A program made the position numbers and the translations under genes. Under the pieces are notes generated by a model. That model was given only the letters and a program-made list of their open reading frames with translations, made no database searches and was not told the DNA's origin. From Antedon mediterranea (Eukaryota; Animalia; Echinodermata): a stretch of DNA of 64,000 nucleotides. This document shows, one piece after another, positions 1-39,100 of the stretch (positions are counted from its first letter, which is position 1; every line of letters starts with the position of its first letter). The DNA is taken from the NCBI RefSeq assembly GCF_964355755.1, contig NC_092675.1, positions 19,502,912-19,566,911 of the forward strand, given 5' to 3'.

Positions 1-925
1 TTAGTAATTTAACCTTCTTGCTGTTGTCTTTTTCTGATATGTTTCCAGCATTTGAATGCATATCTCTAGCACTCTTATTTCGAACTAATGCATTCTTAGC
101 TTGGAACCTTGTCTTTAAATTATTCCATCTCTTCTTCGAAGATTTTTTCTTTACATTTATTTTTGTATCATTGTTATTGTTGTCATTATTTCTTTCATTT
201 TCTCCATTAAGTTGTTCAATGACTAGTGAGTATTCTTTGCTACCTGGTGACACAGAATCCATACTGCTTCGTCTTAACATATCAAGTTCAGACGCATCAT
301 AATGTTTAGCAGCAAATAAATTATCCATACGTTGGGTGGTATAATCCAACATATTATGTACATCCAAACTTGTATAACATTGTCGTGAACACATACTCAG
401 CCTGGACACTCTGTCCGGTATTTCTATCTCCATTTCCAATGATTTCTGTTGGTTTGTTTCGCGTCTGCTTGTTCCCCAAACCTCTTTTACAGGTTCGTTC
501 TTGTTTTCAGTAGCCACTAAATCTGGTGTCGCCATTGAAGAATCACCGGTGGTAGGCCTGTACATCTTTGATCCTGTTGTAGGCCTACGAGTCCCTTCCG
601 AATTAGAAACAAACAAACAAGTTTCAGGCCAACTTTCGGGATCCTCATATCCTTTAAGAACTCCAACAGTTTTTTGCTTAAATAGGCGACTCCTAACCTT
701 CGTTCGTTTTTGGTGATTACCATCACCGTATTTTCTCGATTTTTTAGATCCACGATCAATATTTTCAGTGCTCGGTACAGTAAACCGTCTAATAAATAGC
801 GGGCTAGGTGTTTTATCTCTACTACTTCTAAATTTTGGCTCTGTGACGGATCGTCGTAGAATTGACGATTTTTTTCGTACGTCAATTTCTTCTACATTTG
901 AAAGATCCTGATCCTTCTCCGCCAT
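1..925 (-). CDS. First coding exon (truncated by window edge) of an unidentified protein, >308 aa open frame
   Basis: ATG at 925 (context gcaATGG) opens a stop-free frame to base 1: MAEKDQDLSNVEEIDVRKKSSILRRSVTEPKFRSSRDKTPSPLFIRRFTVPST...KKRWNNLKTRFQAKNALVRNKSARDMHSNAGNISEKDNSKKVKLL. A frame this long is unlikely by chance in AT-rich DNA. No family motif recognised. Confidence 0.75.
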   Translation of the reverse strand, partial: MAEKDQDLSNVEEIDVRKKSSILRRSVTEPKFRSSRDKTPSPLFIRRFTVPSTENIDRGSKKSRKYGDGNHQKRTKVRSRLFKQKTVGVLKGYEDPESWPETCLFVSNSEGTRRPTTGSKMYRPTTGDSSMATPDLVATENKNEPVKEVWGTSRRETNQQKSLEMEIEIPDRVSRLSMCSRQCYTSLDVHNMLDYTTQRMDNLFAAKHYDASELDMLRRSSMDSVSPGSKEYSLVIEQLNGENERNNDNNNNDTKINVKKKSSKKRWNNLKTRFQAKNALVRNKSARDMHSNAGNISEKDNSKKVKLL

Positions 926-5071: not shown

Positions 5072-7821
5072 ATGCGTTTCAGAGCCTTCACGTTTTTTCT
5101 ATCGATAATAATTTTATTGACCGTACTCAATATAATTTTTGTTTACGAGAGCACGAGGAATTCTACCTATGACGTCAAAACGAAACAACATGAACGAATT
5201 TTGGCGGAACATTATGCTGCGTCTAAAGACATCATTCATACATTTTTTAATGATACGCAATTTAGGTCTATACAAAACGACTTCGACGCGTTTATGAGGA
5301 TTGAACAACGCAATAATTCCCTAAATGTGGATGCAGTAGATTACATTCCTGTAGAAAATACAGACATTATTAAATTATCTTTCCAAGACCTTTTCGAGCT
5401 CCTTGTTAATAACACTAATAATAATAATAGTATTAATAGACGCAGGAGAAACCAAACCAGTAATCTAAAACACTTTCCTTTTAAACATAATATGTCAAAG
5501 TCAATACAACCACAGTTTAAAGCAGAAAAGATAAATGTATCTTCCACTGAAAATACATCGTTATCATTGAATGAAACGTATGTTAGAGACCTAATAAAAA
5601 AGACGGTAAAATGGTACCATAATCTGAATCAGGACCAGGTTAGTACGAGTTATTTTAGTATTAATCCAAATGCAAAAGGCGCTTAAATGTTCTCATCTTT
5701 AGCCTACCCAATCCATCCAGGTGGTGCACGAATGCTTTATGTAGTAAATATGTTAAAACTACATTCTGCATAAAATAAAATCCGTCAGTAGTGTTAACCC
5801 GCCACATTTGTCCCGTCAATATTGACATTTCAGTGTTAACCCGCCACATTTGACCCGTCAGTATTGACCTTTCAGTGTTAACCCGCCACATTTGACCCGT
5901 CAATTGACCTTTCAGTGTTAACACGTTAATATTGACCCGTCAGTATTGACCTTTCAGTGTTAACCCGCCACATTTGACTCGCCAGTACTGACCTTTCAGT
6001 GTTAACCTGTCAGTACTTCCCTTTCAATGTTAACCCGCCACATTTGACAGTCAGTATTGACTTTTCAGTGTTAACCCGTCAGATTTTATCCGTCAGCATT
6101 GACCTTTCAGTGTTAACCCGTCAGATTTGACCCGTCGGATTTGACCCGTCAGCTTTCCCGTTCTAGATATTGATTTGAAGTTACGAACATCATGTAATAA
6201 AACTACATTCTAGTTAATCACCTTCTATTGTTCTCCTAAAGGAATACAATCATCATTGCAGAAGTTGTGCTCTCGTGACAAGTTCGGGTCGTCTTTTGAA
6301 TCAAAGTTCTGGATCAGAAATTGATTCCGCTGAATGTGTCATTCGAATGAACGACGCTCCCGTGATCGGATTTGTCAACGATGTCGGAAATCGAACGGAC
6401 ATACGGGTAATGGGTCATCCAAACCTGGCTACTCTAAAAAAGAATCCTGAGAATCTCTTAGAAATATTTCATAAAAGCTCAACAAAAACAAAATTTCTTT
6501 TAGTACCCTGGCTTTACAACACAGATGTGAATAAAACATCAGATAAGTATTATGGAATTTTACGAAACTTAACTCGAATGTTCCCGGATGTAAACATTTA
6601 CGTTCCGTCAAAGGATGCAATGGACGCAGCTGAATCTATCTTCGAATTTGAAATTGGACTCCAAAGGTAAGACACATTCATACTAATACTTTAGAACTTA
6701 CTTTTAATATTCAATTTGTGTTAGTAATTTACCCCATAACTAAATTGTAATGTACCGGTACCCTTAGTCCCGCCTCTTGAAATGATGATCGTCTTTGCTA
6801 ATGCACTGATAGCCATGTTATGACTGGTTGTGCACACTTTAAGCTGATGAACATATCCCAACCAATTACCAGTTCAAAAGAAGTTACTTATGTTTCAAAA
6901 TCTTAACATCAAGTCAGTGATTATAATCTTATATACAATTTATATTAATTCAGGTCTAAAGTGAAGACGTGGTTTACAACAGGTTGGCAGACGATGTTGT
7001 TGTCAATTAGTATCTGTGATAGGATAAAGGTTTATGGTATGCCGCAGGTGTCTCATTGCAGGTAAAGCTTGGTTCTCACTAGCGACGCAACGTAACGCAA
7101 ACGACGCAACGTATAAAAATGCCGTTCTAATAATTGTGTTTGCCCCGCCTGCGTAAAATCAAATCTGCGATTTTTGCAGCATTGTTGCGTCGTCGGTTCC
7201 CACTTGTGATTACGCAATACATCACTTTGCGTCAATACGTTGCTGCGTTGCGTTCTAGTGGGAACCACGCTTAAGAATCACACAACATTAATGAAGCATG
7301 TTACACGTGACACACGTGACATTTATTTGAATATCTGTTAAGTGATGATAATATAATACTTTTTTTACTTTAGTAATTCGTCAGACAGAACGCCCTACCA
7401 TTATTACAATGAGCATGGGAAACGAGAATGTGATTATTACATGAGCAGTGAACGCCGTCTCGATACCGGGCATATATTTCTGACCGAGAAGGCCGTATTT
7501 TCTAGATGGGCTCACAAGTTCAACATTACGTTTCATACCCCAAGTTGGAACATGACATTTAGCGAAAATGGAACACTTGATACACCGTTTATACATGCAT
7601 ACAATCAGGCGCATGACAGAATTAGTAGAATTGATCGAGAACGAAAGGAGTGGCGCGAAAGGATTAGAAAAAGGCGCGAAAGAAATATCAACACTCCTAC
7701 TGAAGAGCCACTTTATTTTCTTTTGTTTTCTGTAACACTTCTTGTGGTTGTTTTAAAAGGATGTGATATTTTAACTTTCATTGTGACATTAATAGTGCCA
7801 GAGTCATGGCAAAACTGGTGA
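5072..7821 (+). CDS. GT29 alpha-2,6-sialyltransferase, ST6GalNAc III/IV/V/VI-like
   Basis: Exons 5072-5638, 6242-6666, 6954-7061, 7374-7821 (GT-AG, 1548 nt, in frame). N-terminal signal anchor; sialylmotif L (CRSCALVTSSGRLL...EIDSAECVIRMNDAPVIGFVNDVGNRT); motif S (TTGWQTMLLSISICDRIKVYGM); motif III (PYHYY); motif VS (HIFLTEKAVF). Confidence 0.92.
5782..6155. repeat. Minisatellite, about 42-nt unit CCGTCAGTATTGACCTTTCAGTGTTAACCCGCCACATTTGAC with degenerate copies, in sialyltransferase intron
   Basis: Directly visible tandem units; explains spurious ORF 5661..5924. Confidence 0.9.
7066..7271. mobile_element. Harbinger-like MITE (family A)
   Basis: TIRs AGCTTGGTTCTCACTAG / CTAGTGGGAACCACGCT; TAA duplicated at 7063-7065 and 7272-7274; related copies at 55765-56090 and remnants near 12660-12750 and 38625-38733. 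Confidence 0.85.
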
Positions 7822-8689: not shown

Positions 8690-9560
8690 TTTTTGCCATT
8701 TTTCGGGAAAATAAAACAAAAATAACAATTGTCGGTCCTTTCTGGTTACTATATCATATTTCATAATGTTCTCAGCGCATTTTACCTCAACATGGTTACT
8801 ATATCATATTTCACAATGTGCTCAGCGCATTTTACCTCAACATGGTTACACTATCATATTTCACAATGCGTTCTGCGCATTTTACCTCAACATGGTTACT
8901 ATATCATAATTTAAATCCGCAGAAGCACACAGTGTGTTCTGTGCATGTTACCTTAACATAATACTTTAAGAAGTCAATATTTTCGCCACTTTTCGAACAA
9001 AATTCCCTAGGTCTAGGCCTACTACAGTAGGACAACAGGGACATTTTCTAAAAATGGGCAAATTTCGACATGCGCAGAATTATCTAATGTGTTCTGCGCA
9101 TGTTACCTTAACATATTTTAAAAAGTAAATTTTTCGCCACTTTTCGAAAAATTTCCTGTACAGGGAAATTTTCTAAAAACAGTCAAATTTCGACTCTTTC
9201 ATTTTTTTGACAAAACTCACTGCTTACTATCATATTTGAGATCCATCCGCAGGATCATAATGTGCTCTTCAACATATTGAACTGATTACTATCATAATTG
9301 ACATGCGCAGAATTACAAATGTGTTCTGCCCATGTTTCCTAAAAAATGTAACTGGTTACTAAATTATCATAATCGACATGCGCAGAATCACATAATGTGT
9401 TCTGTGCATGTTCTCCTAACATATTTTAAAAAGCCAATAGTTTCGCCATATTTTTTAAAAAAAGGGAAATTTTCCAAGAATGGCCAAATTTCGACCCTTT
9501 TATGTTTTGACATAACTGGTTACTATTTCATATTTGAGATGCACATAATTATGATATACA
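8690..9560. repeat. Complex tandem repeat: about 50-nt unit x3 at 8743-8910 plus longer diverged units
   Basis: TGGTTACTATATCATATTTCACAATGTGCTCAGCGCATTTTACCTCAACA repeated; related ATGTGTTCTGTGCATGTTACCTTAACATA and TTTTCGCCACTTTTCGAA blocks recur downstream. Confidence 0.8.
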
Positions 9561-10336: not shown

Positions 10337-13300
10337 TTAGGCCTGCAGTCCCTTGCTGATAAGGAAGGATTCTTGGCTTGGTTCACGGCCTAGAAATTTC
10401 TTCAACATATCAATAGCATCCTGAAAAAGTAAGTATTACTTTGGTATAATTGTATAATAAAAGTGTAGCAAAAAAAACTGTAAAACAAGAGGCAGGTTTT
10501 CCAATAGCAGAAGCTTCAACACAATTTCTATATATTTATACTGTATATAGTATGTACTGTAGGAGCTGCAATAGTACAGTGCAGTGGCAAAACAATGACA
10601 CCACTATTAGAAGAATATTAACAGCATGCAAACTAGCAGTGTGGGAACATTAGCAATAGGTATCTTTTGATTTTCAACGGCCAAAATGAGCTAAGAATTT
10701 TGTGTCGCTGGTCATCCATCTGGACTTTTGATTGGAATTTTGAGCGATAAAGCAACTTCAACTTTCCCTGAATGCACATGTTACTATGTTGTGCAAATCA
10801 TAAGCTCCCTGTAGCAAGCTTTAGTTTCAGGATGTCAAAATAGAAGGTAATTTAATAGACTGTAACGGCTGAAATATACGTCCTGGTTACATTAACATCT
10901 TTTTCGTCTACCATCCTGAAACGAATACTTGCTACCCTTACTGTAGCAACAGTGATAGTATGACGATACTCACCATAGACCCACCAGGCTGAAGGATGTA
11001 TTTTCTATAATCCATTCCCACCTTTGGATTCATTATACCTTCCTTCTTGAAGCGGGAGTGGAACATATCCATGCAGTAAACTTCACTCCACTGAAAACAA
11101 AATAGATAGAATTCAATTCAAAATATACTTGTTCAATATCATTATCAAATAATCGCCTGATTGGTGGAACAAGTCTTCTCGGATAAGGACTATAAACTGT
11201 AGGTCCAGTGTACAAAGGTTGTCCATGTGCACTTTAAAGAACCAACTTTATCTTTCCAGAAAAGATTACCCCGGTGAACTGGTTCACAAAAAAGCCCTGT
11301 GCCGGAGGGATTACCACATGGTAGTCCTTGGCATGTGCCCAAAATATAAAATACATAGTCAGTAATTATCATAGTAATGCATACCAAATATCCATAGTAC
11401 TGTGCGTCATATCCATCAGCAAGATGGCCAAATGCTGCACACATGTTGGTGTTTGGAGTAGCAGGAATCTGCAGAACATCTTTGGAAATCTCAGCATAGA
11501 TGGATTGTGTATCAGCCTAGCATAATAAATACAAATAACGATTAAAATAGATATCTAAAAATAACCTTTTAGTCTGAGATTCTAAGTCAAGTAGCAGGCT
11601 TAGGTCGTGACCTGTGACCTAAGTAGCAAGTCTTTATGTTACTATACAGGTAAAGTTCATTATTTGTTTGTTCTTACTTTATCTTTAGTATGAATGGTTT
11701 GGTCAAAGGTTCCAAGCAAGATTTGACGCTGGTTAAACACTCCAGCATTTGCGTTGCGTGCCTTCACCAGCTTATCCATTAGTTCATCAGGAATAGCGCT
11801 TCCGTCCTTGTAGTGTTTTGACATACGCGACAGAGATTCCTTCTCCCACACCCAGTTCTCCAACATCTGTGATGGCGCCTCCACAAAATCACGCTCCACG
11901 CGTGTTCCACTGCAAGAAAAATGAATGAATTCACTAAAATGATTGTACACAGATCTTCGTAAATAAATTTCACTTTTATGAAGTCTTGGTGGTCTTTGTA
12001 CAGCCTAAACTTCAATAGTGTACTAAGTTTATCATAGGCCCTCACTGGCCCAAATACTTGTTCAATCCCAAGATGGAGTGGGTAGGTCTTAAAACTGTTT
12101 TTCACATACCAGTTCAATTATTTAAAATAATGTCTCATCTAAACAATAAATTTTTGAAAAATATAATTTCAATAGAGTAACAATAATGTTAATAGTAGAC
12201 TAATTTTTTCATGGTCTTGTTTGGTTTGGTTGGTTCTACACAAACCTGAAATATGTGAAGTCTGTTTGTCCCAGGATATCATGCATCACATGACCAAATT
12301 CATGGAAGAATGTTTCCACCTGTATTAACAAAAAATAAAAAAGGTGATCTAAAGTAATTTGAATATATGCAAATACCTGAATAAGCTGATCTCAGCCTGG
12401 GAACAGATCTGATGCATCACATGACCAAACTCATGGAAAAATGTCTCCACCTGTTGGCAATGGTTAATATAAAATAAACAATATTTTAAAAACATTTGAA
12501 ACTATACATACACAGCGTTTTTAAAATACAGTATTAATTAGTAACACAAATTAATTAACCATCACTTTTTATGGCACCAATTTCTTATATATTTGACTAG
12601 GATATTAAACTGCTAGTGTAAGGCAGCATATGACTAGCATATTGTCAAAATAGCTTACGAGTACCACTAGTTTAATAATCTATCGCTTGTGATTGGTCAA
12701 ATCACATGCATTGCGCTTACGTCGCATTAGGTCCTAGTGTGAACCAAGTTCAAGTTAAAATTTATTGTCAAAAATGTAAATGAAATTTGCCTTCCAAGGT
12801 TCAAATTACATTAAAAATAACAACAGTTAAAAACATACAATACTATATAATGGAAAAGATAATATGCTATGTATAAATAGGTAGGCACTAATTCCTTTTG
12901 TTTCATTTGTATCTCCTTTTCCCGCACTAATCTGAATTATGACATGTACAGCCACTGAAGAAGATATGTTTTATAAACCACTCTACTTTTTATTCATTTA
13001 TTTATTTATCTATCTAATTAATAATTGTACTGTGACCTCAATGTAGGTATAATGTTTTTTTATTTGTAAATGGTGCTTAAAGACTATTTTTAGACTTATT
13101 TTGACTCTATCCACATTTATACTTAATTATTTATACAGAAATATATTATCTATTATTTGTGGAAATAAAATAAAACAACAACAATACACTAAGTAAGAGA
13201 ACATGAGCAATAGGACTGCTACAACAAAATGTCTCAATCCAACAAGTTTCTAACTTCTTTTTCTACCTACATCATCATGAGTGAGAAGTGATGGTTGGTC

Positions 13301-16300
13301 TGAGGTAGGCTTGGTGAAGTTAGCCACCATGGCTGCAGCTGCAGACTGTCTGCTGCCATCTGGCTCTAAGCAACCAGGCTAGAAAAACGAAATGAATGAT
13401 GAAAGCAGGTTAAGATACTTATACTTTAATATAAAGCTATGTCTACATTATCAAACTAGTTTATAATGTGTATTGTTCCCAAATATGGTAGTGATATGCC
13501 CAAATATGATAGTGATATGACATCATCATGTCCATATATGGGCACATCACATTTTTTTTTCACATAGTGTAGACAGAGCTTTATAGAGAACAACATCTGT
13601 TTTAAAACTTTCTAATGGATTAAATCTGCAACTGGACAGGAAATTGAACCAAGTTTCTAACAGATACAAAAACTGTGTAAATGTTTACTTAATTTTTTCT
13701 ATAGAAATCAATTATATAATAATTTTACCTGCAATCCAAAGCATGCTGCATGGCTGAACTTGCCTTCACGTGGGAAGAGGTCAAGAAAGAAATGACCCAT
13801 GAACTGGTCAGTTGCTACATCAATTACAGTGAACTAAAGACAAGGACAAAAAACATTTTAAATTACACATATTTAATTAATTAATACAAAAAATAATTAC
13901 TTCAGAACTATTCAGATAGCAGCGCATGTAAAAGGTGTTACAATATTATACAACAAGTGGGGAGATGGCGAGAGATGGGGAAGTGTATTACTCACCATTT
14001 GTACATCCTCATGCCATACTGGGGGGTTCTCAACTTCCTTGAATTTTAGGCCGAGAAGTTCCTGTAAGAAATAAAATAATTTTAAACAACCTTGGACTTT
14101 CAAGATTTGTGTATATTCCCAATTAAATTTAACACTTTATCTATAAAGAAACATGGCAGGTGAATACTATACCTGATATATGTTTAATAATCCAGTGGTC
14201 ACATGATCCAATGGGAAGTATTCCTTCAGTTTATTGTGATCAATGGAATATTCCCTTTCCTCAGCGATTGTCATGTAGTAACGCATATCCCAGTAGTTAA
14301 TCTTGCTGTCAAATTCAATGCCTAGTTCTTTGCACTGTGAATAGTAATAACAATAATACGTTGTTCTTATATAGTGCTTAATGTTCAAAGCCTCTGAAAA
14401 CATTATTACCAAACACATAATTATGGACACATATTTCCATAAATGTTGCAGCTAGTAATCAGCGCAGTGTTCTTTTTATCTTACCAGGTACAAATTTGTA
14501 CACTTGGGTGGAGAAAATAAAAGTAAGTGTCTTGCCTGACATGACACAAGCAATGCAACAAGCATTGGACTCAAACTTCTAATCTCGAAATCAGAAGTCA
14601 AACACATTGTACCACAAGCTCTCATCCATAGTAAACAATACTAAATGTATAAATATTCATTCTGACATAAAATCACTACATGTTGATTCTATTTATAGCA
14701 GTCATATACTTCCATGCTATAAATCAAATTACCTCCTCTTCCTTGTATTGTAGAAAACGCTTCAATTCCTTATCCTGTAGAGGACGCAATTTCTGAGACA
14801 AATCCTTAAGAAAGGTTGCAACAGACTCTGCTTTCTTTGCCATACGCATGTCTAGGATGAATGCGGCATGCGTTGGGAAATCAAGTAGTTGGGATTTCTG
14901 GAATTAAAGAATATAAATTATTAATTCATAACTTGAATTATTATATATATTGTAACTGCAGATTGTGCTAGTATTCTTAGTGGTCTTCTGTTCTTGTAAA
15001 ATGAATCATTAATGGCAATGTACTTTAGGGCAAAAATTCTAGCATTCAAAAACTCAGGGTCATGGGTTCAGTAACAGGAATATTCCCATGATCAGAACAG
15101 TTCCACTAAATGAAATTGATGAACCTGTTTCCACTAATAAAGTCTCATTGAAGATACTTAAAATTTGTTGCTAAATATGTGAAGTTGGATTACATCAAAA
15201 TTATTCTCACCTTATGACGAATTTCAACTAACTCTTCCATTATCTTTGTGTTAGCTTCTTTGCACCTAAAATAAAAAGTGTAGATTTACAGTATATCCCT
15301 ATAATGTACATTCACATGGTCCCTTTTAATACCCATCAAGTGACCAAGAATTTGTGGGTATAATACATAAGGCAATCGTATAAGAACAAATAGAGACTGA
15401 AAATATGTGTGTGTATGTATAGGATTACCTAGAGTTAAAGGCAAACTCCATCTGCCGTCTGGTCTCTGGATTTCGACATTTCTTCATGACAGGGAAGTAG
15501 TCTGGGTACTGGAGAGTAACTTTACACTTGCCATCACTGGTCTAAAATATGACAAAACAATTAGTAAACAAAGTAGATAGGTAGAGCCACTATTTTCCTT
15601 AACAGGAATTTGCAACACTTTGTTGTGTCATTCAAGTATAAGATTCTATTAGAAAAGTTATATTTTCATTTCAAGAACATTTCTTACCTTTTCAAACCTC
15701 TTGATAACATCTGCTGGTACACCATCTAAACAGAAATTAAAGAAGTTGATGATACCAATCAATAAGAAATATATGAAGCAATCAAATTAAAGTTGGCATT
15801 AAAGTATTAATTACTGACAAGGCAGACATGGTAACATTGAGCCGCTGTTGCAAAAGCATTACTCCAAATACAAATATTAGTTCTTAAGAATAATAATATC
15901 CTGAATTTATATAGCGCCTAATGTTGTGAAACCTCTAAGCGCTATACAAAATCTAATACGATAAAAGGGATTCCAACCATGCCAAAAAAAAAACCCAAAC
16001 GTCGCTAACCAGGGATCAGTCAAATTGAACCCCGGTCAGCACCAGTTGTGTCTCGGCCATCCCTGACTCAGGTGCCTCCTGCCCTACTTACACTAGATCT
16101 AAAATAAAAGAGAAAAAAGACCCCTGACTTGTAGAAGAGTGAGAGAAACTCTAAACTTTCCTGGAGTATAAATACCCTTGCTTCTCTTACCTAATTCTTT
16201 CTCAGTAAACTCTAACACAGTGTTCTCATCATTGATATTCTTGTTGAAATCAATGGCAATGTCACTAGCTCTTTTCTTCATGGCTTTTATCTGATCTTGG

Positions 16301-18820
16301 ATATCTTTTGCCAGATGCAGTCCTGAAGTAAACAAAGATACAAATGACAAATAATGTAGGCCTACTTCACAGATCGAATTGTAAATCATCCCAGTAATAA
16401 AGGTAAAAATCTGTGAGGCAGGTGAGTATTTAATTTGATGGCTACAGTACTCCCAATGGTTTTAATAAGTTAGTAGCAAACAAAACACAAGCCAAATCAT
16501 TTGTCATTCCTTCTTCACCTAAAAACCCCATCCCAAAACTTGTTTGTCATCAATCAAATGTTACACTTACCGTTTCGTCGACCCAATTTGATGAGTTTCT
16601 CCAAATAACGTTTGGCTTCTGGTTTAAGTTTAGAGACATCAGTTTTACTCTGAAATGCTACCAAATTATCAAAAACATCTTGCCTCATACTGGAATAAAA
16701 TAAATGTACTCAATTACAGACATACAGTTTAATAATATGGACTCATCTTCATTAGTTCTGTCTTAAGGTGGTCCATGCTTTAACCATAATAGAATAGTAG
16801 CTATTGCTAACAGTACTGTATGCTGTCTCACTCATGGACTGTATAGTTATTTAAATAGGCCCAACCTATGCAGTTGTTTTGAGAGCTTTAGAGTTACTAT
16901 AGTAATGGTACTATACTATACCAATGTCATTAAGGCATGTAGGAGCTTCAATTTTCAATCACCAGGTAGAATTCAATTTGTGTAATAATTATTTCATATT
17001 TTTAAAATGTATATATGCACACAAAAGTGTATATTTTTAGATATATCATATTGCCATACCTCATCTCAACATCAAATTCAGATAGTTTTTTATCTGCCTC
17101 CGTGCTTGCCTCGCGGATCTCTTTCTTGGCGGAGACATGTTGCGGAAAGTCTAACATGTTCCTCTGCACACTGTAGTAACTATCATTGTTTGTCATAGCC
17201 TGAAAATAAATTTTTATATTATAAAATAAAAAATGTATAAATTTTTTTTAATGTTGTCACCATATTTATGTTTTTGTTTGGTGTTTGATGACGTAGGCCA
17301 CACCTTCTTACCGACTCTGAAATTTTAAATTATGTTCTGCGATTGTTTTGAACACAAAAGATGGGTCAAGTTTGGGGTTTTGGGAGGGTGTCGATTTAAT
17401 TTATCGATAAACAAGTAGCAGTTTCCAATAAGGTTAAACTGAAGCTGGTCTTAGACTGGTAGGGAGAAAGGGGAAAAATTCATTACATATAATTTATAAT
17501 TATAGCGTAACTAACTGTGTACTTCTTAAGTAAGTCTCTGGCAGGGTGCAGGTCAAGTCGGCCCCAAACCGTCTCGGCCAAAGTCAAGTCGGCCCCACGT
17601 CAAGTCGGCCCCAAGTCAACTCGGCCTCAAGTCAACTCAGCCAAAAACTAATCGGTCAACTCGGCCACAATAAAGTATGGAACGCAAAAAGTGCTTAATA
17701 TTATTACGATTCTTACTATCCACGTTTTAAAAAAAATGAAGAAATAAAAAATATAATATCATATAAAAAAATGAACTCATTGCCGATATGAATAGAAGTA
17801 CCCGCGTGTTACAAAAAACACGTGCAGGTACCGTATTTTAGGAAATCGAAGACGGAGGCCTACGTTCCACCATTTGGCCATAGAAAAAATGATCGTACAT
17901 CGTTTTTGTGCATGATTTGCGTTTTAAAAAAAGGGGAATCCCCCGGTCAGCGAAAACACGTAGCAGTTGTAGATATCGAAAAAGCTGGCAAACGCACTGC
18001 TACGAAATTTTATTAAACGTAAATAAAGGAAAGTTGGTGAAATCATTCCTATTTTTTTTGCTAAATATATTACTGTATTGTCTAAATAATAATATTCAAT
18101 TCATTAAAAGTCAGAATTATTCATAGTTAAAAAATTGTGAAGAAATATTATTTTATCAATCCCCTTTATTTGCACTTTTTGCGTTCCATAGTGGGCCGAG
18201 TTAACCGATTATTTTTTGGCCGAGTTGACGTGAGGCCGAGTTGACTTGAGGCCGAGTTGACTTGCGGCCGAGTTGACTTGAGGCCGAGTTGACTTGAGGC
18301 CGACTTGACTTGAGGCCGACTTGACTTGGGGCCGACTTGACTTTGGCCGAGACGGTTTAGGGCCGACTTGGATCGAAACCCTCTGGCATATAGGCCTAGC
18401 TAGGCCCTACTTCTGTATTAACTATGCATTTTACTGAGCCTACTTAAGACTAGTTAGTCTGTCTAGTAGGCCTAAACAAAAGATCATAAATATGAAAGAA
18501 TTAAATACATTGGGCGTGGAGGTAGCAACATAAAATTATAAAAGAACAATAAACAAAGCAAACGGGAAACCGAATAAACAAAAGGATAGGCTATGCTTGG
18601 TAACCACAGACGCTCACCAGCCACCTGCTGCTGCTGCACATGTTTGCCTTCGAATTCTTACCTGAATGGTGTTTTCATAAGTCAATTCATTCTCCTTTAG
18701 ATTTCCAACCTTATCGTATACATCTCTAACAGTTTTTATCAAACTATCTACCCGGTTTTTTATATCTTCAGCGCTTAAATCCCAAGTCAGTTTAATACGG
18801 TCCAAAAATGTATCAGCCAT
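10337..18820 (-). CDS. THOP1: Thimet oligopeptidase / neurolysin-like M3A zinc metallopeptidase
   Basis: Exons 18662-18820, 17060-17199, 16571-16689, 16191-16322, 15688-15725, 15429-15541, 15211-15265, 14733-14897, 14173-14334, 13996-14061, 13729-13833, 13271-13378, [12377-12450 or 12246-12319], 11678-11909, 11385-11516, 10974-11090, 10337-10420; 2001 nt in frame. Motifs [79 protein letters not shown]. The VET and VERD residues are THOP1-type. Confidence 0.93.
11160..11345 (+). mobile_element. SINE fragment resembling the Nin/Deu central domain
   Basis: TCTTCTCGGATAAGGACTATAAACTGTAGGTCC...TTAAAGAACC...ACCCCGGTG resembles Nin/Deu-domain SINE cores as recalled; no search was run. Confidence 0.5.
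12246..12319 (-). CDS. THOP1: Oligopeptidase catalytic exon copy B ([25 protein letters not shown])
   Basis: 74 nt, T-rich tract plus CAG acceptor, GTTTGT donor, same phases as copy A. Confidence 0.88.
12377..12450 (-). CDS. THOP1: Oligopeptidase catalytic exon copy A ([25 protein letters not shown])
   Basis: 74 nt, CAG acceptor, GTATTT donor, phase 0 to 2 matching flanking exons. Confidence 0.9.
13435..13580. mobile_element. MITE family B (TIR AGCTCTGTCTACACTA, TWA target), copy 1
   Basis: TIRs plus internal CCCAAATATGGTAGTGATATG repeats; homologous to 27776-27915 and 37889-38008. Confidence 0.8.
14440..14615 (-). mobile_element. Degenerate tRNA-derived SINE (CORE/Meta-type)
   Basis: Reverse strand reads ...GGCAAGACACTTAC...TCTCCACCCAAGTGTACAAATTTGTACCTGG, typical of this SINE body. 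Confidence 0.5.
15900..16080 (-). mobile_element. SINE/L2-like 3' tail remnant
   Basis: Reverse strand TAGCGCTTAGAGG...AGGCGCTATATAAAT tail; a similar tail lies at 27261-27305 (+). Confidence 0.45.
17544..18381. mobile_element. Foldback / MULE-like non-autonomous transposon in oligopeptidase intron 1
   Basis: TIRs of about 145 nt built from 15-nt AAGTCAA(G/C)TCGGCC(C/T)C units; GGG...CCC termini; flanking direct repeat (C)TCTGGCA of 7-8 bp at 17536-17543 and 18381-18388. Confidence 0.85.
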
Positions 18821-24190: not shown

Positions 24191-27100
24191 TTACAATGTT
24201 GAGTCATCATCATCAACATTATATTCCAATTCTTCTATCTTCAGATCGTCCTCTTTTTCTGTTTGATAAAAGTTCTGGTTTTCGATGTCATCAACACACC
24301 CGTGAACAATTCTTACACATGACGTTGTAGTCACAGTAGTTTCATGTCGAGGTTGCGCGATGGGTGGTGTTGAATGCATAGATGTGTTAAAGTTACGTGA
24401 ATCTCGATGCGCCCTTCGTGATTTTCTGTGAGAATGCCGTCTTGAGGACCGTCTTGTCTGTTGAGAAAATTGAAAAATATTTAATTGAAGAATAATAAAA
24501 ACCTGCTGTTAAATTGTACAAAAGCTAAAAATGAGAAAATAAATATTTAATATTATTAACTTACTCTGTAATCCTTCGGCAACCTGTTTTCCACCACTAC
24601 TTCTGGTCGTAAAATTTCAACGTGCTCTTCATGCATCTGCCGCCGTCTATTATCACGCATTCCAGACACGGACATACCGGTGAAGTCACGGTTTTTATCA
24701 TATTGACGTGTGATGTAATTGTGTTCTGGCACTGGCGATGGTGGAGGGGATGGAGTGCTTAGTCTTGTGGCTTGGTGGTGCGGTCGAACCTCAGCATCAG
24801 GTCCTATTATAGATAATATGACTGGGAAAAGCACAAGTCCATTCAACAGGCCAATAACCACAAGTGCTGACATGACTTCGAAAAAGTACCTATAAAATAC
24901 AAAGAAATAACCAATAATGATTAATTGATGAATATTAGTATGTATAACATATATATTACAGTATTATCAATTATAAAGGTGATCATCAACCGGAATACAG
25001 TAATAAAAACTAAAAAATCATAATTGTCCAAATTCCATACTTTTTAATTATACCAAATCAATTGCATATTAAATTACCTCTGCATGAATTGGTATGCTTT
25101 GAAATAAAAGTAAAAATGTCATCATAGTTATGATAGGATGTTGGAGAAAATCCAGATACAAGGGTATAACCTGACAATTTCAGTAAACACTGAAGAATCT
25201 TATTTTCTAAATAAACAAAGCCTGAAGCCAAATTCCACAGCTTCTATGCTACTGATGTGAGCATACATAGACAGAAAACACTACACAACAGCCATCAGCC
25301 AAAGAACGTTTTCTTAGCAAATTGCCTGCTTCGGGATGCTTCACTAATTGCTAAAAAATCACGAAGCATTCTACTCTTTTTTATGTAAACGCTAAAAGTG
25401 TAGCTAAAGGGTGTAATAAGATTTGTCAAATTTCCATCAATGTAAAATCTGATGTGGTTTACAAAATGGAAAGGATTTTATGCATGTGCATTCACATTAA
25501 AAGGAGGTCAGGTCCTAGGCCTTGTTAACGGCGGGTCAGAGGTTAAGGCGTTTCTTTTATGCAGGTCACGATTCAGCAGGCGTTAAATCAGTTTCATTTG
25601 AAGATATGACAGATAGATTTATTCATTGTTAACAAAAAGAATTTACACACATCAACACAAAAGCAAACAAAATCTTGTATAAATAAACTTTTCCTACATC
25701 TGCGACATACTCATAAATCTACACATTTTTATATACTTTTTTTTTTTCCAAACAGAAGCATAGGCCATCATCAAATAAAGGCTGCCGGTGACAAGTGGTC
25801 TTGTGTGTCCTGCTAACTACAACAATATATCCATTTTTAAAGAAAATGTATATTAAGGGTACAGTAGTATTAAGATTAACAAGTTTTGACTAAAAATAGA
25901 TCTCTGCAGGCGCCGAGGTTCCTTGTGAAAAATTAATATCAGGGAACTATTATATAAATGCTAATAATTATTAAGGCAAGCTACAACTAAACATAATAAA
26001 ATACATAAAACAACAAATACATTAAAATCTTAAATATATTATTATATTAAATATATAAAATAATATTGCTTACATCACAACAATTTCAAAATCTGAACGG
26101 GCAAGCAGAACAACACCTAGCAAAGTTGAAATACCGCCATCAAGAACTGGAGAGAAAGTACTTGCCAATGCCATGGAAACGCGTCGATCATGATCTCCAA
26201 TTGAAGTCAGAAAAGCCTACAAAAGATTTAACAAAAAGACTTAATATTGATGCAAATATGAGAAATAATTGATAGAAAATAATGATTAGTATACAGAGCA
26301 AGAAATAATTCTCTAAATTGTGACTCTATGATAACAGAAATCTCTGTTAAAATTATTTAATTTCCCCATCGTATACATTTGAAATACTAAAACCACACCA
26401 AGTAATATTGTAATCCACAAAAGAAAACAGAACAACGAGAAAACCATCTTCACTTAACTTATCATACCTGTCGTCAACACACTCATCAAACCCTATATCA
26501 ACAACAACCACTCAAACTGAAGACAAAAACGATGATCTCAACATAGTTTGCAGAATCTAACCAAAGTAAACAAAATGAACTTACATAGAGTGTGTGTACA
26601 GTGAACTCTACTCCAAATCCGACTGATATTATGAGTGTTACTGCAGGGATGGCGCTCATCTTTACGCCAATGAAGCCCATAAAACCAAACAGTTCTACCG
26701 TAATCATTAAAAGTACCAAGACCTAAGATATAGAAAGGAATTATTAAATTATGTATTAAATATAAAAAGAAGACTCAAGTGGTCTTAATCTTCCAAAAAT
26801 GAGATACCATGATTAAATTTTACTATTTATTTTATATGCAAAATCATACTTTGAATAAATAAAATAAGTTTAACTTACCAGAAGAAATGCAGCCCATGGA
26901 TTGAAGAGAAGCACACCTATGATGATGAAAGTTGATGTAAACACACACACGAGCGATAACAACAGGTAGTGACGAAGCTTGATGTACTGCTCCCAGAATG
27001 TGAAAGGAATACCACTTGGATAATTAGGAATTCCCTTTGCGGCATAACGTTCAGATATGTTGCGTACCTCTTTTATCAGGCGAATGTAATCTTCTGTAGT

Positions 27101-36100: not shown

Positions 36101-39100
36101 AATTTATATGTTTATAAGTATTAATGGAAAATACACCCAAAATGTAAGTAAACATTTAATTGTTTTAACTGTTTTTTTTTAACTTGCCAACTATTATGGA
36201 TATGGTAGATTTTTTTCAATGATTTTACAAGTTGAAGGACCAATTCCACATACTGTGGACTTTAACATTGACATGTTATGATACAGTATACAATAGCTAT
36301 TATAGCATAATTTCATATTTTTTTCATGTCATTTAATTCCATTATGTAGGTCGCTTACATTAATCATGACCCAAATGCATTATATATTTAACATTTGTGC
36401 TGCAGGTTTGTGACCCAGAAAACCAAAATATAGGAGCAACACGACCTACATCTGGGACAATTCAACACAGAAACAGAATGTATTTCGTGTTATGGTAATG
36501 TTCTTAACCTGTTAGTGTGATGAGAGCTTCGATTTGAAATCCATTGGTAACAATAGGAATAGTTGTAATCCACGAGTGCTCGTGGCTACCGACCCATGGC
36601 ATTTGACTAGAACATTTGCCTTCCAGTCATTGTGTCTACATATATAATAAATTGCACACGCACCTCATAACAACAAAAAAGTGTCCATAATAAACTACCT
36701 TCCTTTATTATTTATTCTGATTTCTCTTAATGTTCTTGTTTAACATACTTGGTTTCATAATTTAATGTTACAGTCGTTGAAATGTACTACATATCATTTG
36801 GCAAAGTGGGACAAATTCTAAAACTTTAAATAACTTTTGTAATAATAATATTTGTAATAATATGTGGAATAAGGTGTTTAGGTCGACTAATTAATAAGGT
36901 AAAAGAAAGCATAAAATAAGCATACTGTACATACATTTTAGCATTCTAGTATAGTTTAAGATATTGATGCCAACTGTTAGGTTTTATAGTTGCATTCTCA
37001 AACCAATGCCTTATAATATTATATGGAATAATAGCCATAGAGATATAGTGAAAATGCTAGTATATGGTATCAAGGGAAAAAAGATCTATATATACATGAT
37101 ATACTACTAACAGCAAAAATGTTCACTCTTTCTTAAAAAGTATGTCAGAGAAAGATATCTCCTGGGTAACATCATTCGCTTCCAAAACTATGTTTGTGTT
37201 ATGACCCGATTCTCTTGTGCATTTTTTTCTCATTTTTATAAATAATTTAGATTAATTCGATTATAACAGACTGGTTGAGTGATCCTAGTTAAAACTAAAA
37301 CCATTATTTTGAAAGAAATAAACTATTGCACTGATGTTAAAAATCACTTTTACACTGGTTTCTGCAATTTATGTGGGTGGAGTTTTAGTGATAAATGCAT
37401 CGAAAAGCGGTTTGGTTTCTTGCTTGGGGCAAAGTCGCTAAGCTTAATTCTTCTGGCTTAATATCAATACCAGATTTTGTTCTACGAATTTTACTAAACC
37501 ATAGACCAGTAAAAGAACCATATGTCTTACCTGTGTTGTAGATGCATTAAACTGAATACCAATAAAGGCACAAAAACCTAAGCTCGCTACCACTGTTGCG
37601 CTTATTAAAAGTACTCCAAGAAGTCCTACACCACCCTGAGACTTGACACCATCAGTAAATTTCACCATGGTTAGAAAAGCAAATAGCACCTGAAATAAAT
37701 AAATGTAACAAAAAACGTCATGATTAGGTAAGCAGTGAACAAACCATAGCTCCGCAAATTATTAAAAATCCAGTTTTTATATCATCTTTATACCACAATT
37801 GTTTATAAGTATCGTAATTATAATACAATATTACTTAACATGACAACACCATTGAACCGCCCATAATTTTATTCCAGTTTTTTTGTTAAGCTCTGTCTAC
37901 ACTACAAAACTAGTTTGACAAAAATAAAGCGTGATATGACATCATGTCCATATATGGGTACATCACATTTTTTTTTGTCACATAAAGTTTGATAGTGTAC
38001 ACACAGCTTTAACTAATCTATAATAATTGTTTGCATGATATGTTTTTGACTCTCTATATCTTCAGCATTCCAGCACTTCAATAAGCATTGAAAATAATAT
38101 GTTTTTAATACTTAAAAACATGTGTTATTTTAAAAAATGGATTTGCTGAATTTATACAAATAAAGTACAAAGCCAGAAAGATTGGGGTGACTTTTTGTTT
38201 ATTTTATTTCTTATTTTGAAAGATTGTCTTTTTCTACACAAAAGAAATGTAGAAATTCTAAACAAAATCTATCTAGTACAATACTCACCATCAACAAGTA
38301 GCCACCGATAACATCAGGAAGGCTAGTCTCAGAAAACTCTGCCAGCACTTGGTTCATGGACGCTTCAGAAAATGCATTGACATCTTGGGTAGGATGATTA
38401 GGTTCGCTGTTCCGGACAACCTTTTAAGAAAACAAAAACTGGTTTTAAAAAGCTGGACACTTTCAATACGAAATAAATATAGTGTTACAACAGTTAGCAA
38501 CAGATAATCATAGCAACACCTTAAGATATATTGAAGTGTGTATGTTAGGTTACTCCTACCAAGTGTGGGGCTAATGGAATACTTCCATGGATATAGAGTG
38601 TTCAATAATAGAGGAATAGGCTATTGTGGTTCCCACTATAACACAACAAGCAGGTTTGATTTCAAGCAGGCGATGCAAACACAATTATTGGAAGGGCATT
38701 GCTTATGTTGCATCACTAGTGGGAACCAAGCTTTAGCAAATTTGATCATGTTACCTTAGTAAACTCCTTCTGCCAGGCATCCAGTATCTCTTTAGCCTTC
38801 TCCTCTGTCCATTTTATGTGACTGACTCTCTGATGGTTCTTCCAGTTATCATACATGTTCTTTTCACTTTTTAACAGAAAAATTGTTTCAAGGGCTTCGG
38901 CACTGCAAAAGGTAAACCAACATTTAAACTTTATTTGAAAATTGAAAAACATTTTTAAAGTTGAGCTCCACTCAGATTTTCTCAGCTTTTATATTAAGCA
39001 TGATTAATTGAAAGTGATTACATAACAAAAACCGGGAAAATACGGCAATATTTTTCAAAAACTCATTTCTAAAAATCGGTCGGAAAATAGTGTTTTTTAA

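Follow-up and report, generated by a model that had tools for sequence, protein, structure and literature searches.

Two alternative copies of the HEXXH active-site exon in an M3A peptidase gene of the crinoid Antedon mediterranea, with matching isoform pairs in other echinoderms and in hemichordates

The M3A peptidase gene of Antedon mediterranea carries the exon that encodes its HEXXH zinc motif twice, in tandem, and both copies are used. The pair is real and ancient, and it is apparently undescribed, while the class to which it belongs, tandem-duplicated mutually exclusive exons, is already known. In our judgement it is rather likely that the gene yields two zinc peptidases of 666 residues, each made with one of the copies, and that the eight residues by which they differ line the substrate channel differently on its non-prime (S2-side) wall. 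The window, i.e. the whole stretch of DNA that was analysed, comprises 64,000 nucleotides, and all positions are counted from its first letter. The relevant features, in the order of transcription, are the following.

10337..18820, minus strand: coding span of the M3A peptidase gene, with 18 coding exons if both copies are counted, 17 per transcript, 666 amino acids
13271..13378, minus strand: constitutive exon 12, upstream of the pair, with a phase-0 donor common to both copies (exon map; loose end of the copy-B contig)
12377..12450, minus strand: copy A (exon 13A), the ancestral type, with Q468 and C470 after HEXXH (95-nt RNA-like contig and joint to 11909)
12320..12376, minus strand: 57-nt spacer between the copies, with branch-point-like adenines (motif prediction)
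12246..12319, minus strand: copy B (exon 13B), the derived type, with D468, L470, G471 and Y477 after HEXXH (95-nt RNA-like contig and joint to 11909)
11678..11909, minus strand: constitutive downstream exon with a phase-2 acceptor, carrying E489, the third ligand of the zinc, and R485 (equivalent to neurolysin T499)

A sequence-only reading of this DNA had described two tandem 74-nt exons with equal phases and AG/GT borders. This was confirmed: both copies start in phase 0 and end in phase 2, and the spacer is 57 nt long. The peptides of the copies and three synonymous changes between them were also as claimed, and we found a fourth change of this kind (CAG/CAA at codon 472). The copies are identical at 54 of 74 nucleotides, 36/39 in the 5' part and 18/35 in the 3' part. 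When the window was searched by blastn with copy A, copy B was matched at E 6e-12 and the next match had an E value of 0.47, thus the similarity of A and B is far beyond chance. The HExGH motif occurs at these two sites only in the six-frame translation of the window, and a tblastn search of the window for duplicated exons, made with 17 exon peptides and three alternative segments from starfish and lancelet, returned 13A/13B only. Either copy alone leaves an open frame of 666 amino acids. Joint inclusion and double skipping both break the frame, as had been predicted, the former leading to a stop at codon 490 and the latter to a stop at codon 461; retention of the spacer leads to a stop at codon 488. 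The other 16 introns of the gene measure 111-1462 nt, 111 nt being the next shortest length after the 57-nt spacer.

The surroundings of the gene can be described briefly. Downstream of the peptidase, on the opposite strand, lies an exon of a family-29 sialyltransferase (6218-6670, plus strand; PF00777, E 3e-21). Upstream there is a large minus-strand gene with a sterol-sensing domain exon (37444-37758, minus strand; PF12349) and probable last exons at 24191-24963 (minus strand); this gene is presumably patched-like. Intron 1 of the peptidase gene contains two arrays of a 16-nt unit (17552-17642 and 18218-18370), which are in opposite orientation and flank high-copy sequence; this arrangement probably represents a non-autonomous transposon whose terminal arms consist of repeats. 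Minisatellite-like arrays with 14/42-nt and 50-nt units were seen at 5790-6152 and 8743-8908, respectively.

The assignment to thimet oligopeptidase (TOP) proved to be sound at the level of an M3A peptidase that is thimet-oligopeptidase/neurolysin-like. Peptidase_M3 (PF01432) matched each isoform with 517.6 bits (cutoff 27; E 6e-155). The downstream exon matches a RefSeq protein of this species at 100%. The A form is identical, letter for letter, to Antedon mediterranea XP_071952160.1 (RefSeq isoform X1) and the B form to XP_071952161.1 (RefSeq isoform X2), so both isoforms are already present, under a generic name, in the automatic annotation. The zinc site consists in both of H460, E461 and H464 with the downstream glutamate E489, and the two zinc ligands (H460, H464) and the catalytic Glu (E461) that the duplicated exon was said to carry are kept in both copies. 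Residues H411, C414, F415, H587, Y592 and Y599 match their substrate-contacting counterparts in neurolysin (neurolysin numbering equals Antedon numbering plus 14). An alignment-based structure model of the B form (67 sequences, pLDDT 92.9) has the two-domain channel fold and superimposes on human thimet oligopeptidase (1S4B) with a TM score of 0.97 and an rmsd of 1.2, and on rat neurolysin (1I1I) with a TM score of 0.96.

It is instructive to compare the two isoforms with vertebrate THOP1 and NLN. The fold (TM 0.96-0.97; 58-61% identity) and the HEXXH...E zinc site are the same, and in both cases there are two variants with related channels; however, the variants come from separate genes in vertebrates and from alternative exons of a single gene in Antedon. 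Nor do A and B correspond to the vertebrate paralogues: at neurolysin positions 470 and 499 both are TOP-like, and the residue equivalent to Asp468 of B is Gln in THOP1 as well as in NLN. The simple equation of A with TOP and B with neurolysin was ruled out, because E456 and R485 (neurolysin 470 and 499) are common to both isoforms. The QTDF sequence of B resembles neurolysin, yet TD is common among homologues.

Use of both copies was seen in run X1, which came from a study other than that of runs X2, X3 and X5. No run is recorded as RNA; X1 was treated as such because its contigs follow exons and skip introns. The joints 11909>12246 (copy B) and 11909>12377 (copy A) were present at depths of 121 and 109, respectively. 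One 95-nt contig with a 12+74+9 layout covered each copy, at a depth of 124.4 over B and 94.5 over A, contig depth being a poor measure of expression level. The loose ends of the copy-B contig correspond to the end of exon 12 (12 nt, the plus strand of 13271-13282) and to the start of the downstream exon; the upstream joint to exon 12 is thus read directly from the loose end for B, and for A it follows from the same contig layout. The long introns flanking the copies had no X1 cover. Neither an A-B joint nor a double-skip joint was listed in X1, a single contig-level run that drops rare variants. The X1 data demonstrate the use of both copies, not strict exclusion. The sequence-only reading would have been abandoned by its author if one copy had lacked junctions, and downstream joints are present for both. 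Together with the match of both isoforms to RefSeq, the splicing of both copies supports the proposal that one gene makes two enzyme forms differing beside the catalytic helix, the activity of the two forms being predicted from their sequences.

It is very improbable that the pair is an artefact of assembly or annotation, such as merged haplotypes or a dead exon copy. It must be noted that the DNA-like runs X2, X3 and X5 represent one sample, which is possibly the source of the assembly, and that the RefSeq isoforms are automatic models. Nevertheless, single DNA contigs cover both A and B (X2 record 6, 11185-12703; X3 record 14, 11371-12700, no differences; X5 record 23, 11901-12554), which speaks against the haplotype merging that had been considered as a possible source of error. 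Moreover, the run from the other study splices both copies with no differences listed inside them, the intron flanks of A and B are unrelated (21/57 and 18/57 identical), and the pair is found in ten other species.

The gene would splice one copy of the HEXXH exon into each transcript. We consider it likely that joining of A to B would be blocked mainly by steric interference, the predicted branch point of copy B lying less than 50 nt from the donor of copy A, and that nonsense-mediated decay would serve as a backup. The spacer contains branch-point-like adenines, predicted by motif, at 22, 32 and 41 nt from the donor of copy A; the candidate at 32 nt (window position 12345) lies 25 nt before the acceptor of copy B and is followed by a U-rich tract. 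A fourth branch-point motif, at 52 nt, is just 5 nt from the acceptor. The A+B and the double-skip products would both acquire early stops several exons before the end of the gene, and transcripts with such early stops would be targets of decay. The predicted RNA fold of 12200-12520 was unremarkable (z -1.05), with no sign of a docking-site structure. The threshold for steric interference, about 50 nt from donor to branch point, comes from vertebrate work (PMC5740500 and PMC7969005, in the parts available).

Isoform pairs of equal length, whose differences in this exon are confined to residues 468-477, were found for 11 of the 15 named species of echinoderms and hemichordates that were compared: Antedon, Anneissia, Strongylocentrotus purpuratus, Lytechinus pictus, L. 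variegatus, Acanthaster, Patiria, Asterias rubens, A. amurensis, Ptychodera and Glandiceps. Tandem exons in DNA were seen for Antedon alone; the pairs of the other species are known from automatic isoform annotation. Loss of one copy in relatives, which had been named as an argument against the pair, is not the picture obtained, as both isoforms are annotated in the other crinoid, in sea stars, in urchins and in two acorn worms. Apostichopus japonicus, two Diadema species and Saccoglossus have only the A form, which means either loss or missing annotation. Residue 468 is Gln in all 11 A forms and Asp in all 11 B forms. All B forms also have Gly471 and either Tyr or Phe at position 477, whereas Arg476 occurs in 9/11 A and 0/11 B forms. 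Among 203 other homologues with the motif, a partly redundant set, Gln468 was present in 188, Asp468 in 1 and Gly471 in 1. A further 110 short proteins contained two with Asp468, one of them nearly identical to the single case among the 203, and there was none among 67 proteins with the motif from clusters made up mainly of oyster, coral and ctenophore sequences. Because Gln468 dominates and Asp468 is rare among the other homologues, A represents the ancestral type. In the mollusc and coral isoform pairs that were compared there was no swap in this exon.

In 18/18 comparisons, which are not independent, the hemichordate B forms score nearer to the B forms of echinoderms than to their A forms. 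This favours one duplication before the two phyla separated, and on these sequence comparisons a single origin of the pair before the echinoderm-hemichordate split is probable. That split took place over 500 million years ago. Convergence is possible, since P0158, a protein of an unrelated eukaryote, also pairs D468 with G471. The two residues occur together in 18 of the 19 Asp468 proteins examined, most of them related B isoforms, a hint in the sequences that 468 and 471 may be structurally coupled.

A metagenome scan for the B motif identified three loci. L001 (P0158/P0268) is a spliced eukaryotic transcript with Asp468 and Gly471 together. L003 is an animal genomic fragment, which contains at 5-78 (minus strand) a 74-nt B-type exon identical to copy B at 62/74 nucleotides. 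This exon directly follows the homologue of exon 12 across an 866-nt intron, without an A copy, and the contig ends 4 nt past the exon; the order of the copies may be reversed or A may have been lost. The L003 gene is without an intron between the equivalents of Antedon exons 9 and 10. AU tests of its placement rejected none of the alternatives (echinoderm p 0.35, hemichordate 0.39, ambulacrarian 0.48). L002 is GC-rich and free of introns; two M3 peptidase genes lie next to each other on this contig (positions 710 and 3001, plus strand) and differ at the same position, with Gly versus Asp after the HEXXH helix turn.

The eight differences between A and B fall in the final turn of the zinc helix and the loop that follows, and all catalytic residues are identical. 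In the B model the helix extends over 452-470 and G471 lies just past its end. On a helical wheel with H460 at 0 degrees, residue 471 falls at 20, H464 at 40, 468 at 80, E461 at 100 and 470 at 280 degrees, thus 468 and 471 share the helix face with the zinc ligands H460 and H464 and with E461. Position 477 corresponds to TOP M490/neurolysin R491, which we take to be a channel-lining residue. The first half of the exon, with HEXXH, would have been duplicated as a mere passenger, because the variable residues sit in the same exon. The changes Q468D and S/A471G on the face of the zinc ligands would give B a more acidic pocket, which could shift the choice of cleavage sites or the cleavage rates, for instance in favour of peptides that are basic at P2/P3. 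By this analogy-based argument we lean slightly towards a measurable specificity shift in B.

The S2-side location of the change is inferred from the residue eight positions after the first zinc His in angiotensin-converting enzyme (ACE), a structural relative. In the parts of the sources available, this residue is F391/Y369 (PMC5157764), and mutagenesis proved its role in S2 selectivity between the domains (PMC7148434). Like the Antedon gene, ACE (family M2) is one gene with two catalytic sites, those of the N- and C-domains, differing at this very position (Y369/F391). Unlike in Antedon, the whole domain is duplicated and both domains are kept in one chain; ACE belongs to another family, with 13-17% identity, and the equivalence of the residues rests on helix register, not on residue-level superposition. 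Several observations count against this interpretation. Neurolysin R470 and T499 swap specificity between TOP and neurolysin (PMC11310207), and their equivalents E456 and R485 are the same in both isoforms; indeed, every zinc ligand, substrate contact and specificity switch of PMC11310207 that we could map is unchanged between A and B. The S2 contacts of K-26-DCP, another M3A enzyme, are T484, V486, R488 and V491 in the available part of PMC5157764, with no i+8 residue among them, and they map to the constitutive downstream exon of Antedon, which speaks against the S2 reading. Any shift may also be small, because neurolysin binds its substrate largely via the peptide backbone (PMC11310207), and THOP1 substrates, according to the accessible text of PMC7565970, have no single defining residue and show weak sequence preference.

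The main rival to a change of specificity is that the swap tunes regulation or dynamics: with Cys470 lost and a helix-capping Gly471 gained, thiol sensitivity, stability or hinge closure could be altered. C470 is present in 200/203 other homologues and in 11/11 A forms but is replaced by Leu in 9/9 echinoderm B forms, TOP is thiol-sensitive with two cysteines in the catalytic cleft (PMC7565970, in the part available), and G471 lies just beyond the helix end in the B model. We nevertheless regard this explanation as unlikely, since the Cys is kept in both hemichordate B forms and in the L003 exon, all of which have D468 and G471; position 470 points away from the zinc side; and thiol activation is tied to C246/C248/C253, elsewhere in the protein, as stated in the accessible part of PMC7565970. 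Improbable, in our opinion, is a B form that is a weakly active or inactive peptide binder, its metal site disturbed by Asp468, which lies one turn beyond the second His that binds zinc. The rarity of D468 (1/203 homologues) and its position on the zinc-ligand face would fit such a role, but 11/11 B exons retain all zinc ligands and the catalytic Glu, P0158 is a full-length homologue that carries D468/G471 in an otherwise ordinary frame, and the X1 depth of B is as high as that of A, although contig depth measures expression poorly.

Functional equivalence of the isoforms, with the pair persisting as a splicing trap homogenised by gene conversion, has similarly little probability. The synonymous divergence of the copies had been taken earlier as a sign of selection on both. 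As an argument this is weak, only 4/15 comparable codons differing synonymously; it is conservation across species that speaks for selection. The observed number is in fact lower than the 7.9 expected at saturation (P ~0.04; expectation drawn from the codon use of the gene itself), and in so old a pair this suggests homogenisation by gene conversion or a splicing constraint in the shared half, not young age. Traces of homogenisation, consistent with equivalence, may be seen in three camarodont urchins, whose copy A has the B-like G471 and T473, and in residue 474, which is common to both copies within a species (E/E in Strongylocentrotus, K/K in both Lytechinus). On the other hand, the Q/D difference at 468 is kept in these urchins as in all 11 species, the mean identity of echinoderm B forms to other B forms is 7.9-8.4/11 against 2-6/11 to their own A, and a redundant copy would be expected to decay. 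A pair of active enzymes with differently lined channels remains the interpretation we prefer.

Two further swaps were noticed in the family, both known from proteins of automatic models, not as exons in DNA. A second isoform swap that leaves the length unchanged was noted in four sea stars, at residues 560-589 (P0009/P0135, P0133/P0132, P0138/P0141 and P0140/P0139), within the homologue of Antedon exon 16 (557-600). It replaces Met-Cys by Lys-Val and Ala by Ser beside H587 (neurolysin H601) in the substrate loop and adjoins Y592 (neurolysin Y606). Exon 16 is single in the Antedon window, where this swap has no duplicated counterpart. In Asterias rubens all four combinations of the two swaps are annotated. 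Two lancelet entries (P0148/P0151 and P0144/P0146) show a swap at 387-415, i.e. in the equivalent of Antedon exon 11, near the edge strand that binds substrate; in B. lanceolatum the equivalents of neurolysin C428 and F429 thereby become Met and Trp. A joint reading of these observations, which we offer as a tentative one and would not yet bet on, is that invertebrate deuterostomes diversified TOP/neurolysin by exon swapping and not by gene duplication, three separate times and on different walls of the channel: at the end of the zinc helix in echinoderms and hemichordates, in the His587/Tyr592 loop in sea stars, and in the edge strand His411-Phe415 in lancelets. On this reading the isoforms would be separate neuropeptidases under tissue-specific regulation, and Asp468 would be the counterpart of ACE Y369/F391, an S2 specificity switch so far overlooked in M3A enzymes.

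The Antedon copies are adjacent, homologous, equal in length and phase and flanked by canonical splice sites, i.e. they have the properties of a tandem pair. In the available parts of Hatje et al. 2017 (PMC5740500) and PMC7954323, tandem homologous mutually exclusive exons are likewise adjacent and equal in length and phase; their length is not divisible by three in 60% of human clusters, the distance from donor to branch point is short in 9% of clusters, and the variable residues cluster near functional sites, all of which resembles the case described here, where the short distance is a predicted one. Nine events touching catalytic sites are listed in the part of Lam et al. 2021 (PMC7954323) that was available. 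Antedon differs from this class in that the duplication leaves the entire HEXXH motif intact, the variation being confined to residues next to it. OGDH exons 4a/4b (PMC7969005, as far as its accessible text goes) offer another parallel, an enzyme with two long-conserved exon-swapped forms, in which exclusion depends on branch points 25-41 nt from the upstream donor, similarly to the Antedon candidates. In OGDH, however, the branch points are distant ones in a longer intron and calcium sensitivity is switched, whereas in Antedon the whole intron is 57 nt long and the swapped part adjoins the catalytic zinc. THOP1 and NLN are absent from the text supplements of PMC7954323 and PMC5740500, the parts of these sources that could be searched. 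Literature searches, including one for thimet oligopeptidase splicing and with subscription journals mostly outside their scope, gave no description of these exons among the matches listed.

As a splicing mechanism the pair belongs to a well-known kind, and its interest lies in the enzyme. It is so far only partly understood how TOP and neurolysin select their cleavage sites in unrelated peptides. The A and B forms represent a natural experiment on this question, enzymes identical but for eight residues beside the zinc, kept across echinoderm classes and acorn worms. Position 468 (neurolysin Q482), which is Gln in most animal homologues, both mammalian enzymes included, is a directly testable site. 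Considered together with the starfish and lancelet swaps, the pair suggests that exon duplication may have struck repeatedly at segments of the TOP/neurolysin family that contact the substrate.
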